NCBI RefSeq assembly: GCF_017348835.2 | Contig: NZ_CP071375.1 | From: Escherichia coli | Lineage (GTDB): Bacteria > Pseudomonadota > Gammaproteobacteria > Enterobacterales > Enterobacteriaceae | Reading direction: 5' to 3' (one strand) | Length of the DNA stretch: 64,000 nucleotides | Part shown: piece after piece, positions 32,312 to 40,733 of the stretch | How the letters are laid out: each line of letters opens with the position of its first letter | Numbering within the stretch: position 1 is the stretch's first letter | The notes under the pieces: model-generated | Seen by the model: the letters and a program-made list of their open reading frames with translations, nothing else | Database searches by the model: none | Told to the model about the DNA's origin: nothing | Program-made: the position numbers and the translations under genes

Positions 32312-33061
32312 TTACTGCCCGCACACCTCACACCCCGGATTACTCATCAGTTTCATTTCGCGAAACTGACAGGTCATCGCATCGTACATGACGATTTTCC
32401 CGCTGGCCGGTTTACCATAACCTGCCAGCAGTTTGATCGCTTCCATTGCCTGCAATGAACCAATTACGCCGATCAACGGTGCCATCACGCCTGCTTCTAC
32501 GCAGGTTAACGCGTTCTCGCCAAACAAACGGCTAAGGCAGCGATAGCACGGTTCGCCGTCCTGATAAGTGAAGACCGTGATTTGACCTTCCATACGAATT
32601 GCCGCGCCGGAAACCAGCGGCACCTTCGCGGCAAAACAGCCTGCGTTCAGTTGATTACGTACCGCAACGTTATCCGTACAGTCGAGCACCAGATCGTGTT
32701 CAGCAATCAATGCTGCAAGTTCTGCGTCATCCAGCAGTGCATTGACTGGCGTAATCGCGATATGTGGGTTGATCCGCGCCAGGGCGTCACGGGCGGATTC
32801 CACCTTCGGTTGCCCGACCGTGGCATCACTGTGCAGCGTCTGGCGTTGCAGATTCGAGAGCGAAACCGAGTCGAAGTCGAGCAGCGTCAGGTTGCCGACA
32901 CCGGCGCTTGCCAGATACTGCGAAGCTGCGCAGCCGAGTCCACCGAGGCCGACTACCAGCACACGAGAATCTTTTAGCGCCTCCTGACCGTCAAAATCAA
33001 AACCGCGCAGAATGATTTGCCGGTTGTAGCGCAGCATCTCCTGATCGCTGAGTTCCGCCAT
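32312..33061 (-). CDS. moeB: Molybdopterin-synthase adenylyltransferase MoeB
   Basis: 249-aa ORF with ThiF/MoeB GxGxxG (VVGLGGLG) and C-terminal CxxC pairs. Confidence 0.93.
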   Translation of the reverse strand: MAELSDQEMLRYNRQIILRGFDFDGQEALKDSRVLVVGLGGLGCAASQYLASAGVGNLTLLDFDSVSLSNLQRQTLHSDATVGQPKVESARDALARINPHIAITPVNALLDDAELAALIAEHDLVLDCTDNVAVRNQLNAGCFAAKVPLVSGAAIRMEGQITVFTYQDGEPCYRCLSRLFGENALTCVEAGVMAPLIGVIGSLQAMEAIKLLAGYGKPASGKIVMYDAMTCQFREMKLMSNPGCEVCGQ

Positions 33062-34296
33062 TACAGGCCTCCGAACAACGCGTTAAACGGTTCTACTTCC
33101 ACCCATTCGCCCACTTCCACATTGCCGCGATCGCGTTCCAGCACGATAAAGCAGTTGCCGAGGCTAAAGGAGCTAAATATATGTGAACCCTGATGTCCGG
33201 TGGTCGTCACTTCAAGTTCACCGTCGGCGTTGTGTTGCAGCACGCCGCGCTGGAAATCAAGACGTCCTGGCGTTTTTTTCAGGCGGGACGCTGTGCGTAC
33301 GCGCTGGCGCGCGGGCAGGCCGCTGGCGGTGTTGCCACTTAGTTTTGCCAGCAAAGGCTGTACCAGTTGATAGAAGGTCAGCGTCGCTGAAACCGGGTTG
33401 CCCGGCAGGCCGCAGAACCAGCTATTGCTGAGTTTACCGAACGCGAACGGTTTACCTGGTTTAATCGCCAGCTTCCAGAAGGCGATCTCCCCCAGCTCTT
33501 CAAGAATCGTTTTGGTGTAATCCGCCTCACCAACCGAAACACCACCGGAACTGATCACCACATCCGCCTGGCTGTCGGCTTCAATAAATGCGGCGCGCAG
33601 GGCATGTGGATCGTCGCGAATAATCCCTAAGTTGATTACTTCACAACCCAGCTGTTCTAACATCAGGTGTACGGCGAGACGGTTGGTATCGTAGATTTGG
33701 CCGTCGCCCAGCGGCTGACCGGGCAACTGGAGTTCATCACCGGTAGAAAAAAGCGCTACACGCACTTTACGAATCACCGGAACTTCGGCAATCCCCAGTG
33801 AAGCAATCACTGGCAGTTCAGCGGTAGTCAGGCGAGTCCCCGCCGGGAAAACAACCGCACCCGCAGAGATATCTTCACCACGACGGCGAATATTTTGCCC
33901 GCTACGCACTTCAGCAGTAAAACGCACGCCATTGTCCGTTTGTTCAGTCTGTTCCTGCATCACCACCGCTTCGCAGCCTTCCGGCACCGGCGCACCGGTC
34001 ATAATACGAATGCAGGTGCCCGCAGGCCATTCACCATGATACGGCTGACCGGCAAAGGATTTACCGGCAACGGGCAGCGGTTGCCCGGAGGCAATATCGG
34101 CTAAACGCACCGCGTAGCCGTCCATAGCGGAGTTATCAAACCCCGGGACATCCAGCGGCGAAACGACATCGCTCGCCAGAATACGACCAAAACACTGAAC
34201 CAGTGGCAGCGTTTCCTGGGCGGTCAGTGGGGTGACGCGAGAAAGCATCTCATTAAGCGCGGTGTCGAGCGACATCAATCCGGTGGTAAATTCCAT
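33061..34296 (-). CDS. moeA: Molybdopterin molybdotransferase MoeA
   Basis: 411-aa ORF; stop overlaps moeB start (TAATG). Confidence 0.93.
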
Positions 34297-34499
34297 GAAA
34301 ACACTCCTGCGGAGGCAAAATCGAATTTGCCTATTATGTCAGAAAAACGCCACAGACTGTATGCCACCTCGGGCGTAGCGCTGGGTCCTGCCTTTACATG
34401 CCATATCCATCTTTCTATATTCAAAAATTGAATGAGTAATTCATAAAAATTCTGATATTTATAGCAAAAGTGGCGAACCACCCTTAATGGACGAATACT

Positions 34500-35465
34500 A
34501 TGGGCAAAGCAGTCATTGCAATTCATGGTGGCGCAGGTGCAATTAGCCGCGCGCAGATGAGTCTGCAACAGGAATTACGCTACATCGAGGCGTTGTCTGC
34601 CATTGTTGAAACCGGGCAGAAAATGCTGGAAGCGGGCGAAAGTGCGCTGGATGTGGTGACGGAAGCGGTGCGTCTGCTGGAAGAGTGTCCACTGTTTAAC
34701 GCCGGAATTGGCGCTGTCTTTACGCGTGATGAAACCCATGAACTGGACGCCTGTGTGATGGATGGTAACACCCTGAAAGCCGGTGCGGTGGCGGGCGTTA
34801 GTCATCTGCGTAATCCGGTTCTTGCCGCCCGGCTGGTGATGGAGCAAAGCCCGCATGTGCTGATGATTGGCGAAGGGGCAGAAAATTTTGCGTTTGCTCA
34901 TGGCATGGAGCGCGTCTCACCGGAGATTTTCTCCACGCCTTTGCGTTATGAACAACTACTGGCAGCGCGCGAGGAAGGGGCAACAGTCCTCGACCATAGC
35001 GGTGCGCCACTGGATGAAAAACAGAAAATGGGCACCGTGGGGGCCGTGGCGTTGGATGTAGACGGCAATCTGGCGGCAGCCACGTCCACGGGCGGAATGA
35101 CCAATAAATTACCCGGACGAGTTGGCGATAGCCCCTTAGTGGGTGCCGGATGCTACGCCAATAATGCCAGTGTGGCGGTTTCTTGTACCGGCACGGGCGA
35201 AGTTTTCATCCGCGCGCTGGCGGCATATGACATCGCCGCGTTAATGGATTACGGCGGATTAAGTCTCGCGGAAGCCTGCGAGCGGGTAGTAATGGAAAAA
35301 CTCCCTGCGCTTGGCGGTAGCGGTGGCTTAATCGCTATCGACCATGAAGGGAATGTCGCGCTACCGTTTAACACCGAAGGAATGTATCGCGCCTGGGGCT
35401 ACGCAGGCGATACGCCAACCACCGGTATCTACCGTGAAAAAGGGGACACCGTTGCCACACAGTGA
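34500..35465 (+). CDS. iaaA: Isoaspartyl dipeptidase/asparaginase IaaA (Ntn hydrolase)
   Basis: 321-aa ORF with autoproteolytic GTVGAV site. Confidence 0.92.
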
Positions 35466-37323
35466 TGAACTTGATGCCGGTAATGTGCTGGCGGTTGAAA
35501 ATCTGAATATTGCCTTTATGCAGGACCAGCAGAAAATAGCTGCGGTCCGCAATCTCTCTTTTAGCCTGCAACGCGGTGAGACGCTGGCAATTGTTGGCGA
35601 ATCCGGCTCCGGTAAGTCAGTGACTGCGCTGGCATTGATGCGTCTGTTGGAACAGGCGGGCGGTTTAGTACAGTGCGATAAAATGCTGTTGCGGCGGCGC
35701 AGTCGTGAAGTGATTGAACTTAGCGAGCAGAGCGCTGCACAAATGCGTCATGTGCGCGGTGCGGATATGGCGATGATATTTCAGGAGCCGATGACATCGC
35801 TGAACCCAGTATTTACTGTGGGTGAACAGATTGCCGAATCAATTCGTCTGCATCAGAATGCCAGTCGTGAAGAAGCGATGGTCGAGGCGAAGCGGATGCT
35901 GGATCAGGTACGCATTCCGGAGGCACAAACCATTCTTTCACGTTATCCGCATCAACTCTCTGGCGGGATGCGCCAGCGAGTGATGATTGCGATGGCGCTG
36001 TCATGCCGCCCGGCGGTGCTGATTGCCGATGAGCCAACCACCGCGCTGGATGTCACTATTCAGGCGCAGATCCTGCAATTAATCAAAGTATTGCAAAAAG
36101 AGATGTCGATGGGCGTTATCTTTATCACTCACGATATGGGCGTGGTGGCAGAGATTGCCGATCGGGTACTGGTGATGTATCAGGGCGAGGCGGTGGAAAC
36201 GGGTACCGTCGAACAGATTTTTCATGCACCGCAACATCCTTACACCCGTGCGCTGTTAGCTGCTGTTCCGCAACTTGGTGCGATGAAAGGGTTAGATTAT
36301 CCCCGACGTTTCCCATTGATATCGCTTGAACATCCAGCGAAACAGGAACCCCCCATCGAGCAGAAAACGGTGGTGGATGGCGAACCTGTTTTACGGGTGC
36401 GTAATCTGGTCACCCGTTTCCCTTTGCGCAGCGGTTTGTTGAATCGCGTAACGCGGGAAGTGCATGCCGTTGAGAAAGTCAGTTTTGATCTCTGGCCTGG
36501 CGAAACGCTATCGCTGGTGGGCGAGTCTGGCAGCGGTAAATCCACTACCGGGCGGGCGTTGCTGCGCCTGGTCGAATCGCAGGGCGGCGAAATTATCTTT
36601 AACGGTCAGCGAATCGATACCTTGTCACCCGGCAAACTTCAGGCATTGCGCCGCGATATTCAGTTTATTTTTCAGGACCCTTACGCTTCGCTGGACCCAC
36701 GTCAGACCATCGGTGATTCGATTATCGAACCGCTGCGCGTACACGGTTTATTGCCAGGTAAAGAAGCGGCTGCACGCGTTGCGTGGTTGCTGGAGCGCGT
36801 GGGCCTGTTACCTGAACATGCCTGGCGTTACCCGCATGAGTTTTCCGGCGGTCAGCGCCAGCGCATCTGCATTGCTCGCGCGTTGGCATTGAATCCAAAA
36901 GTGATCATTGCCGACGAAGCCGTTTCGGCGCTGGATGTTTCTATTCGCGGGCAGATTATCAACTTGTTGCTCGATCTCCAGCGTGATTTCGGCATTGCGT
37001 ATCTGTTTATCTCCCACGATATGGCTGTGGTAGAGCGGATTAGTCATCGTGTGGCGGTGATGTATCTCGGGCAAATTGTTGAAATTGGTCCACGGCGCGC
37101 GGTCTTCGAAAACCCGCAGCATCCTTATACGCGTAAATTACTGGCGGCAGTTCCGGTCGCTGAACCGTCCCGACAACGACCGCAGCGTGTACTGTTGTCG
37201 GACGATCTTCCCAGCAATATTCATCTGCGTGGCGAAGAGGTGGCAGCCGTCTCGTTGCAATGCGTCGGGCCGGGGCATTACGTCGCACAACCACAATCAG
37301 AATACGCATTCATGCGTAGATAA
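35452..37323 (+). CDS. gsiA: Glutathione ABC importer ATP-binding protein GsiA (two ABC cassettes)
   Basis: ORF 35344..37323 trimmed to TTG start giving (M)PHSDELDAG..., 623 aa; two Walker A motifs. Confidence 0.85.
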
Positions 37324-37342
37324 CATTCAGGCGGAGAATAAA

Positions 37343-38881
37343 ATGGCAAGAGCTGTACACCGTAGTGGGTTAGTGGCGCTGGGCATTGCGACAGCGTTGA
37401 TGGCATCTTGTGCATTCGCTGCCAAAGATGTGGTGGTGGCGGTAGGATCGAATTTCACCACGCTCGATCCGTATGACGCGAATGACACGTTATCTCAGGC
37501 CGTAGCGAAATCGTTTTACCAGGGGCTGTTCGGTCTGGATAAAGAGATGAAACTGAAAAACGTGCTGGCGGAGAGTTATACCGTTTCCGATGACGGCATT
37601 ACTTACACCGTGAAATTGCGGGAAGGAATTAAATTCCAGGATGGCACCGATTTCAACGCCGCGGCGGTGAAAGCGAATCTGGACCGGGCCAGCGATCCGG
37701 CGAATCATCTTAAACGCTATAACCTGTATAAGAATATTGCTAAAACGGAAGCGATCGATCCGACAACGGTAAAGATTACCCTCAAACAGCCGTTCTCAGC
37801 GTTTATTAATATTCTTGCCCATCCGGCGACCGCGATGATTTCACCGGCAGCGCTGGAAAAATATGGCAAGGAGATTGGTTTTCATCCGGTGGGAACCGGG
37901 CCGTATGAACTGGATACCTGGAATCAGACCGATTTTGTGAAGGTGAAAAAATTCGCGGGTTACTGGCAGCCAGGATTGCCCAAACTGGACAGCATAACCT
38001 GGCGTCCGGTGGCGGATAACAACACCCGCGCGGCAATGCTGCAAACCGGTGAAGCGCAGTTTGCTTTCCCCATTCCCTACGAGCAGGCCGCACTGCTGGA
38101 GAAAAACAAAAATATCGAGTTGATGGCCAGTCCGTCAATTATGCAACGTTATATCAGTATGAACGTGACGCAAAAGCCGTTCGATAACCCGAAGGTCCGT
38201 GAGGCGCTGAATTACGCCATTAACCGCCCGGCGCTGGTGAAAGTAGCCTTCGCGGGCTATGCAACGCCAGCTACTGGTGTGGTACCGCCGAGTATCGCCT
38301 ACGCGCAAAGTTATAAACCGTGGCCTTACGATCCAGTGAAAGCGCGCGAATTACTGAAAGAGGCGGGATATCCCAACGGTTTCAGTACCACGCTGTGGTC
38401 GTCACATAACCACAGCACCGCGCAGAAAGTGCTGCAATTTACCCAGCAGCAGTTAGCGCAGGTCGGGATTAAAGCCCAGGTGACTGCGATGGATGCCGGA
38501 CAGCGGGCGGCAGAAGTTGAAGGTAAAGGGCAAAAAGAGAGCGGCGTGCGGATGTTCTACACTGGCTGGTCGGCTTCAACCGGCGAAGCGGACTGGGCGC
38601 TATCGCCACTGTTCGCCTCGCAAAACTGGCCACCGACGCTGTTTAATACCGCATTTTACAGCAATAAACAGGTGGATGACTTCCTGGCTCAGGCACTGAA
38701 AACTAATGATCCGGCGGAAAAGACCCGCTTGTATAAGGCGGCGCAGGATATCATCTGGCAAGAGTCGCCGTGGATCCCGCTGGTGGTAGAAAAACTGGTG
38801 TCGGCACACAGTAAAAACCTGACCGGTTTTTGGATCATGCCAGACACCGGCTTCAGCTTTGAAGACGCGGATTTGCAATAA
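37343..38881 (+). CDS. gsiB: Glutathione-binding periplasmic protein GsiB
   Basis: ORF 37076..38881 trimmed to [14 protein letters not shown] signal-peptide start (512 aa); GGAG RBS. Confidence 0.9.
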
Positions 38882-38898: not shown

Positions 38899-39819
38899 AT
38901 GCTTAATTACGTTATCAAACGCTTACTGGGGTTGATTCCAACGCTGTTTATCGTCTCGGTGCTGGTGTTTTTATTTGTGCATATGCTGCCCGGCGATCCG
39001 GCGCGATTGATTGCCGGGCCCGAAGCTGATGCGCAGGTTATAGAACTGGTGCGTCAGCAGCTGGGGTTGGATCAGCCGCTGTATCACCAGTTCTGGCACT
39101 ATATCAGCAATGCTGTGCAGGGGGATTTTGGCCTGTCGATGGTGTCGCGTCGTCCGGTTGCCGATGAGATTGCCAGCCGCTTTATGCCAACGCTGTGGCT
39201 GACCATAACCAGTATGGTCTGGGCGGTGATATTTGGTATGGCGGCGGGAATTATCGCCGCCGTCTGGCGTAATCGTTGGCCGGATCGATTGAGTATGACC
39301 ATTGCGGTGTCGGGGATCTCGTTTCCGGCATTTGCTCTGGGGATGCTTTTAATTCAGGTATTCTCCGTTGAACTGGGCTGGCTGCCTACCGTGGGAGCAG
39401 ACAGTTGGCAGCACTACATTTTACCCTCCCTGACGCTCGGCGCGGCAGTGGCAGCCGTGATGGCGCGCTTTACCCGTGCGTCATTTGTCGACGTTTTAAG
39501 CGAAGATTATATGCGTACCGCGAGGGCGAAAGGGGTGAGCGAAACCTGGGTTGTCCTCAAACACGGGCTACGCAACGCGATGATCCCGGTAGTGACCATG
39601 ATGGGCTTACAGTTTGGCTTTTTGCTCGGTGGTTCTATCGTGGTGGAGAAAGTTTTCAACTGGCCCGGACTTGGACGCTTACTCGTTGGCTCCGTAGAAA
39701 TGCGCGATTACCCGGTGATTCAGGCGGAAATTCTGCTTTTCTCGCTGGAATTTATTCTTATCAACTTAGTGGTGGATGTGCTTTACGCCGCCATTAACCC
39801 GGCTATCAGGTACAAGTAA
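38899..39819 (+). CDS. gsiC: Glutathione ABC importer permease GsiC
   Basis: 306-aa membrane ORF, DppB/OppB-like. Confidence 0.92.
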
Positions 39820-39821
39820 GG

Positions 39822-40733
39822 ATGCGACTATTTAACTGGCGACGTCAGGCGGTGTTAAACGCCATGCCACTGGTCAAACCTGACCAGGTACGTACACCGT
39901 GGCATGAATTCTGGCGACGATTTCGCCGTCAGCATATGGCGATGACCGCCGCATTGTTCGTTATTTTATTGATTGTGGTGGCCATTTTTGCACGCTGGAT
40001 CGCTCCCTATGACGCCGAAAATTATTTTGATTATGACAATCTGAATAACGGACCTTCTTTGCAGCACTGGTTTGGCGTCGATTCACTGGGGCGTGACATT
40101 TTCAGCCGTGTCCTGGTTGGTGCGCAAATCTCGCTGGCGGCGGGCGTGTTTGCCGTGTTTATCGGTGCGGCGATCGGGACGTTGCTGGGCTTGTTGGCTG
40201 GATATTATGAAGGCTGGTGGGATCGGCTGATCATGCGCATTTGCGATGTGCTGTTTGCCTTCCCGGGGATTTTACTGGCGATCGCTGTTGTTGCGGTGTT
40301 GGGAAGCGGCATTGCTAACGTGATTATCGCAGTCGCCATTTTTTCCATCCCCGCGTTTGCCCGACTGGTGCGCGGCAACACGCTGGTGTTGAAACAGCAA
40401 ACCTTTATTGAGTCAGCGCGCAGTATTGGTGCCAGCGATATGACCATTTTATTGCGTCATATCTTGCCTGGGACCGTCTCGTCTATCGTGGTGTTTTTCA
40501 CCATGCGCATTGGCACCTCGATTATCTCTGCCGCCAGCCTGTCATTTCTCGGCCTCGGTGCGCAACCGCCGACACCAGAGTGGGGAGCAATGCTCAATGA
40601 GGCACGAGCGGATATGGTTATCGCGCCGCATGTCGCTATTTTTCCGGCCCTGGCTATTTTTCTGACCGTACTGGCGTTCAATTTGTTGGGCGATGGTTTA
40701 CGCGATGCGCTGGATCCGAAAATTAAAGGATAG
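39822..40733 (+). CDS. gsiD: Glutathione ABC importer permease GsiD
   Basis: 303-aa membrane ORF, DppC/OppC-like. Confidence 0.92.

Follow-up and report, generated by a model that had tools for sequence, protein, structure and literature searches.

The gsiA start codon inside the end of iaaA in Escherichia coli: comparative support for a TTG start and for an overlap derived by stop-codon loss

The glutathione importer gene gsiA of Escherichia coli opens within the last codons of the preceding gene, iaaA, which raises the questions of where GsiA translation begins, how the two reading frames came to overlap, and whether synthesis of GsiA is tied to translation of iaaA. The junction was analyzed in a 64,000-nt stretch of E. 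coli DNA, referred to here as the window, and coordinates are those of the window unless K-12 is named. The features at the junction are as follows.

34500–35465, + strand: iaaA (ybiK/spt), encoding the isoaspartyl peptidase EcAIII proenzyme of 321 aa, with the stop codon TGA at 35463–35465 (open reading frame list, RefSeq).
35452–37323, + strand: gsiA, encoding the 623-aa ATPase of the glutathione importer, an ABC protein with two domains (open reading frame list, RefSeq, comparison with K-12).
35452–35454, + strand: probable gsiA initiation codon TTG (RefSeq start, homologous start codons, fixation in E. coli).
35452–35465, + strand: dual-coding overlap of 14 nt, with the iaaA stop codon counted in (sequence, annotations).
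35439–35446, + strand: predicted gsiA Shine-Dalgarno sequence AAAGGGGA, 5 nt upstream of TTG within the last iaaA codons (predicted 16S pairing).

The TTG codon is located 11 nt upstream of the iaaA TGA on the same strand and therefore 14 nt (35452–35465) are read in two frames, as TTG CCA CAC AGT GA(T) by gsiA and as (ACC) GTT GCC ACA CAG TGA by iaaA. The original prediction had placed a gsiA TTG at 35452 inside the last 14 nt of iaaA, which can be read directly from the sequence and is the same in RefSeq. The longest open reading frame in the gsiA frame spans 35344–37323 (659 codons), with TTG in the same frame; its first ATG, at 35344, lies exactly 36 codons above TTG, in agreement with the 36 additional codons overlapping iaaA that had been counted previously. 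In the RefSeq record of MG1655 (NC_000913.3), iaaA occupies 866568–867533 and gsiA 867520–869391 with a 623-aa product, a geometry identical to that of the window, and the RefSeq junctions of strain PE164 and five further strains that were inspected are arranged as in MG1655. The iaaA-gsiABCD locus of K-12 (ybiK-yliABCD, b0828-b0832) has the same genes, gene order, TTG codon and 14-nt overlap as the window; only four GsiA residues differ (619 of 623 identical), and the start codon is the same. When the 401 nt around the junction (35250–35650) were compared with 5426 complete E. coli genomes, 5425 matched at ≥97% identity, and the matching place was always annotated as iaaA and gsiA. Within this collection, 5 of 5426 matching places were on records labeled as plasmids, one genome contained two copies, and one genome had no match. 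The TTG start and the 14-nt overlap are already known from standard annotation and the literature, and the finding is ordinary in that the reference genomes already annotate gsiA from TTG. As the junction is an annotated gene boundary and not a statistical signal, a chance expectation is inapplicable. Instead, conservation was used as the test, and the boundary passed it: TTG is fixed within the species, and related genera have a start codon at the homologous position.

Among the in-frame candidate starts between 35344 and 35520, TTG is the sole codon with a good Shine-Dalgarno sequence. The predicted pairing of AAAGGGGA with the 3′ end of 16S rRNA amounts to −7.8 kcal/mol and is the best of these candidates, compared to −1.5 kcal/mol for ATG 35344, −3.0 kcal/mol for GTG 35485 and none for ATG 35518. 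The orthologous Shine-Dalgarno sites read TAAGGGGG or TAAGGAGA. The orthologue set comprised 80 loci from other species, Salmonella not being among them, in each of which iaaA and gsiA were located. The homologous start codon differs between genera: Escherichia, Citrobacter, Superficieibacter and Pseudocitrobacter use TTG; Lelliottia, Enterobacter, Phytobacter, Kosakonia, Siccibacter and Pluralibacter gergoviae use GTG; and Leclercia, Pluralibacter sp. and the Cedecea group use ATG. An in-frame stop is situated 3–10 codons upstream of the homologous gsiA start in several relatives. Where the gsiA frame is closed 3–5 codons upstream, as in Lelliottia, Enterobacter MGH24, Enterobacter Ag1, Cedecea and Siccibacter, the homologous codon is thus the only start that takes in the conserved residues 2–8 of GsiA, PHSDELD.

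The codon also is uniform within E. coli. The 41-mer centered on TTG was present in 5355 of 5426 genomes in a search that required an exact 28-mer seed spanning the codon, and the versions of this 41-mer with ATG or GTG gave no match in the E. coli genomes in the same seed search. With a more permissive search, the junction 51-mer was recovered with ≤2 mismatches in all 5425 E. coli genomes. TTG was kept in each of four variant junctions that were inspected, and the 51 nt around the junction of the window are identical to K-12. Overall, these comparisons make it very probable that gsiA starts at TTG 35452, where initiation would be directed by AAAGGGGA (35439–35446) inside the last iaaA codons.

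The long reading frame offers a different start, as it continues upstream through iaaA.

35344–35451, + strand: 36-codon upstream extension of the longest gsiA-frame open reading frame, consisting of iaaA read out of frame (substitution phase, Shine-Dalgarno scan).

If translation began at ATG 35344 (or at ATG 35353), GsiA would have 659 aa and its first 36 codons would overlap iaaA out of frame. This is the longest open reading frame and it begins with ATG, and the 659-aa form is annotated in a few older GenBank records. In a collection of 15 billion proteins, the exact 623-aa protein of K-12 carries the name GsiA in its source records and is found on at least 1000 contigs, versus six contigs for the 659-aa long form, all six of which derive from older submissions. 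RefSeq records agree with the shorter form, so that the assignment of the recognized GsiA N-terminus to TTG 35452 in the original prediction was borne out. The substitution pattern is telling in this regard. In Escherichia and Citrobacter, the variable columns over the 108 nt that precede the start are distributed 1/28/4 on gsiA codon positions 1/2/3, the excess at the second position being iaaA wobble, whereas downstream of the overlap the distribution is 17/12/30, with the maximum at the gsiA wobble position. Upstream of the start, the gsiA frame has 8 invariant residues out of 36 and the iaaA frame 29 out of 32. ATG 35344 (position −108) has virtually no Shine-Dalgarno sequence, E. albertii does not have this ATG, and the extension is broken by in-frame stops in Lelliottia, Enterobacter, Cedecea and others. 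In view of the substitution phase, the few invariant residues, the ATG missing in E. albertii and the in-frame stops in relatives, the 36 upstream codons are judged from the alignment to evolve only as iaaA sequence and not to be coding in the gsiA frame, and initiation at the upstream ATG is scarcely credible. A further codon, GTG 35434 (−18), was rejected as a gsiA start: it is without a Shine-Dalgarno sequence and is GCG in other Escherichia genomes. Two − strand open reading frames at the junction (35361–35552 and 35368–35571) were dismissed as mechanical frames within two conserved + strand genes.

Published initiation data bear on TTG itself and on starts downstream of it. INRI-seq is a cell-free assay in which the initiation region of each gene is presented as a separate short RNA, for gsiA a fragment from −30 to about +135 without upstream translation. 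The gsiA start registered 0 CPM in five of five INRI-seq replicates with the transcript present in the pool (PMC9825163, Tables S2 and S4). The in vivo Ribo-RET column of the same data set also is 0 for gsiA, with no peak (PMC9825163, Table S2), and TRAINSPOTTER Table S1 passes from b0828 to b0835 with no row for b0829 and hence no GsiA N-terminus (PMC13245402). Thus, the confirmation of TTG that the original prediction had looked for in initiation profiling and N-terminal proteomics was not obtained, as the three genome-wide data sets, INRI-seq, Ribo-RET and TRAINSPOTTER, give no signal at the gsiA start. This gap most likely is an absence of data through low expression rather than contrary data. 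The lack of a recorded initiation signal at TTG could also be taken to mean that gsiA starts downstream at GTG 35485 (Val12) or ATG 35518 (Met23), with codons 1–11 as an untranslated leader, and the GTG at +33 indeed is found in many orthologues. However, this codon is explained by the conserved Val of the first beta-strand motif VLxV, both downstream candidates are missing a Shine-Dalgarno sequence, and the INRI-seq oligonucleotide spans both codons yet lists no alternative gsiA start. Moreover, in genera in which iaaA does not overlap at this place, the DNA that encodes PHSDELD has changed at synonymous sites while the residues are retained, which counts against the downstream GTG and ATG. 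A downstream start is improbable on this evidence, and TTG 35452 is retained as the gsiA start in what follows.

The relatives also suggest how the overlap came about. Two features within the end of iaaA are pertinent.

35439–35441, + strand: iaaA codon 314, AAA (Lys), at the alignment column of the relatives' iaaA TAA, the putative stop-loss site (alignment).
35439–35462, + strand: eight-codon IaaA C-terminal tail KGDTVATQ, across the former spacer, the Shine-Dalgarno sequence and gsiA codons 1–4 (alignment).

The stop-loss column reads GAA-AAA-GG in Escherichia (two species) and Citrobacter (three genomes), and GAA-TAA-GG in seven genera: Leclercia, Superficieibacter, Phytobacter, Lelliottia, Enterobacter, Pseudocitrobacter and Siccibacter. 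In these seven genera iaaA ends in ...GIY(R/Q)E-TAA, followed by a spacer of 9–11 nt (GGGGG or GGAG) and then the gsiA start; the iaaA stop together with the spacer reads TAAGGAG, a near-perfect Shine-Dalgarno sequence. The ancestral enterobacterial state would accordingly have been an iaaA that terminated at ...GIYRE-TAA, a Shine-Dalgarno-bearing spacer of 9–11 nt, and the gsiA start. In the sampled Escherichia and Citrobacter genomes, a T-to-A change would then have converted TAA to AAA at the end of iaaA, so that the gene reads eight more codons (KGDTVATQ) to the TGA inside gsiA. This TGA is the first stop in the iaaA frame and is formed by gsiA codons 4–5 (AGT GAT), which also are conserved in the relatives. 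With a stop codon in the outgroup, a sense codon at the same column in the ingroup, and extension to the next in-frame stop, the alignment indicates that the 14-nt overlap is derived and arose from the loss of the iaaA stop by a single-base change. Short overlaps between prokaryotic genes on the same strand are often proposed to originate from loss of a stop codon, and the iaaA-gsiA overlap resembles such cases in that one substitution, TAA to AAA, extends iaaA to the next in-frame stop within gsiA. Salmonella IaaA, which we take to be 313 aa in length, would represent the TAA state. As far as the papers searched show, the stop-loss origin of this overlap is undescribed, and it is the only small addition made here to existing knowledge of the junction.

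The apparent conservation of the IaaA tail is due to the Shine-Dalgarno sequence and gsiA codons 1–4 that lie beneath it. In E. coli 23CRST011 (NZ_AP045770.1), gsiA codon 3 has changed synonymously from CAC to CAT, and the iaaA CAG has thereby become TAG, which leaves an IaaA of 320 aa and an overlap of 11 nt; the tail thus is dispensable in at least one strain. The chains of EcAIII deposited in the PDB carry the full C-terminal tail of IaaA, although in one entry the listed beta chain ends at residue 315. At the other end of the protein, an N-terminal peptide of IaaA at the annotated ATG is recorded in TRAINSPOTTER Table S1 (PMC13245402). INRI-seq, in contrast to this N-terminomics peptide, is without a call at the annotated iaaA ATG and lists an alternative in-frame ATT at +15 (34500–34520; K-12 866568–866582).

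Beyond the junction, iaaA and gsiA are followed closely by the remaining importer genes.

37343–38881, + strand: gsiB (annotation of locus L001 moved by a fixed offset; start and stop codons checked in the window).
38899–39819, + strand: gsiC (same derivation and check).
39822–40733, + strand: gsiD (same derivation and check).
34393–34421, + strand: candidate sigma-70-like promoter, TTTACA, 17 nt, TATATT, ~80 nt upstream of iaaA (10 of 12 consensus matches).

The five genes are on the same strand with spacings of −14, +19, +17 and +2 nt from iaaA through gsiA, gsiB and gsiC to gsiD. The iaaA gene has been described as part of the operonic gsi genes (PMC10355420), and iaaA and gsiABCD have been placed together under the CysB regulon (PMC3224099). 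These papers and the tight spacings uphold the view that the isoaspartyl peptidase and the glutathione importer are encoded in one operon, as had been proposed from the sequence. Of the 80 orthologous loci, 64 have an iaaA homologue immediately before gsiA, Burkholderiales among them. No terminator-like matches were detected at the + strand gene junctions of the operon, and the frequency of such matches in the region was not above that in shuffles. A terminator-like hairpin on the − strand (35464–35447) was rejected, as it contains a G-T pair that is a C-A mismatch on the mRNA strand and is no commoner than in shuffles. The promoter match is to be treated as a lead and not as functional evidence, since sites of this kind are no more numerous in the region than in shuffles. 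Within gsiD (39822–39830; K-12 871890–871897), INRI-seq Table S3 lists an out-of-frame ATT peak of 157 CPM located 8 nt into the gene, in addition to the annotated start.

Translationally coupled gene pairs in operons typically have ATGA or TGATG junctions, for example trpE-trpD and trpB-trpA. The iaaA-gsiA pair shares their arrangement in that the gsiA start overlaps the iaaA end on the same strand, falls in the footprint of the terminating ribosome, and has its Shine-Dalgarno sequence embedded in iaaA. The classic ATGA or TGATG junctions occur in the orthologous pairs of Erwinia, Rahnella, Cedecea and Pluralibacter, and the predicted iaaA-gsiA junctions in Enterobacterales mostly are between −14 and +19 nt, these overlaps included. 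Unlike the classic pairs, the E. coli overlap is 14 nt and not 1 or 4 nt, and the start is TTG; iaaA-gsiA is a candidate for coupling. Ribosomes that finish iaaA would terminate 11 nt past the gsiA start, with the start still within their footprint. Much GsiA synthesis would most likely come from ribosomes delivered by iaaA, whether by reinitiation or by locally enhanced initiation at a TTG that is weak in itself. Such coupling would tie output of the ATPase to translation of the operon and may keep it low relative to GsiB.

The predicted mRNA fold across the start (35402–35501) has a minimum free energy of −29.8 kcal/mol with z = −0.78 against shuffles, and thus no stable structure masks the start; a search of Rfam produced no match in 34300–37500. 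Coupling through RNA structure or a regulatory RNA element was therefore rejected, as the fold is no stronger than shuffles and Rfam gave no match. With the start unmasked, coupling, if any, would operate by ribosome hand-over and not by unfolding.

GsiA could be made from TTG by de novo initiation directed by the Shine-Dalgarno sequence, independently of iaaA, in which case the overlap would be a neutral by-product of stop loss without functional coupling. The good Shine-Dalgarno sequence at optimal spacing and the lack of occluding mRNA structure are in keeping with this proposal. Furthermore, the same Shine-Dalgarno sequence with a non-overlapping spacer of 9–11 nt is the majority state in the relatives, which presumably express GsiA without the overlap. 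The IaaA tail varies and tolerates truncation, and this tolerance, together with an origin in a single point mutation, means that the overlap may be neutral and not a coupling device; as it looks like a by-product of stop loss, selection for coupling is not needed to account for it. Set against these points are the weakness of TTG as an initiator and the junctions of the gene pair, which are persistently tight across Enterobacterales and include 1-nt and 4-nt overlaps. In addition, the isolated gsiA region gave no peak in vitro, whereas the starts of gsiB, gsiC and gsiD all were detected by INRI-seq (PMC9825163). The zero for gsiA fits a weak TTG that needs ribosomes from iaaA, but it is weak support for dependence on coupling because the assay misses ~30% of annotated starts. 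Wholly independent initiation accordingly is a reasonable but less favored account. Coupling of gsiA to iaaA translation, which the original prediction had suggested, is plausible from the geometry of the junction, and the odds are slightly in favor of a material contribution to GsiA synthesis. When the annotated boundary, the TTG start, the overlap derived by stop loss and initiation by iaaA-delivered ribosomes are taken as one explanation of the locus, its probability is estimated at roughly 0.8.

A second gene pair, next to iaaA-gsiA, offers a parallel. The moeB (32312–33061) and moeA (33061–34296) genes on the − strand share one base at 33061, so that the moeB ATG overlaps the moeA stop as TAATG. 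Like gsiA, moeB was silent at its start in the in vitro INRI-seq assay (PMC9825163), yet an N-terminus at that ATG was seen in vivo (PMC13245402). The moeA-moeB genes probably are a second coupled pair.

For the annotation of these bacteria, the comparisons give the reference start of gsiA a sound basis, and they imply that programs which call the longest open reading frame (659 aa) are wrong for this gene. For the evolution of gene order, iaaA-gsiA provides a worked example of how the loss of a stop codon by a one-base change makes a same-strand overlap. A stronger version of the coupling proposal is that GsiA in Escherichia and Citrobacter is made almost wholly by termination-reinitiation, the ribosome slipping back 11 nt from TGA 35463, at the end of the extended iaaA, to a TTG that by itself would hardly initiate. 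This is doubtful, but if true, one TAA-to-AAA mutation rewired the stoichiometry of the peptidase and the transporter ATPase in that lineage. For engineering or quantification of the glutathione importer, it is relevant that the start of the ATPase gene is a weak TTG lying within iaaA, and that deleting or truncating iaaA may alter the expression of GsiA.
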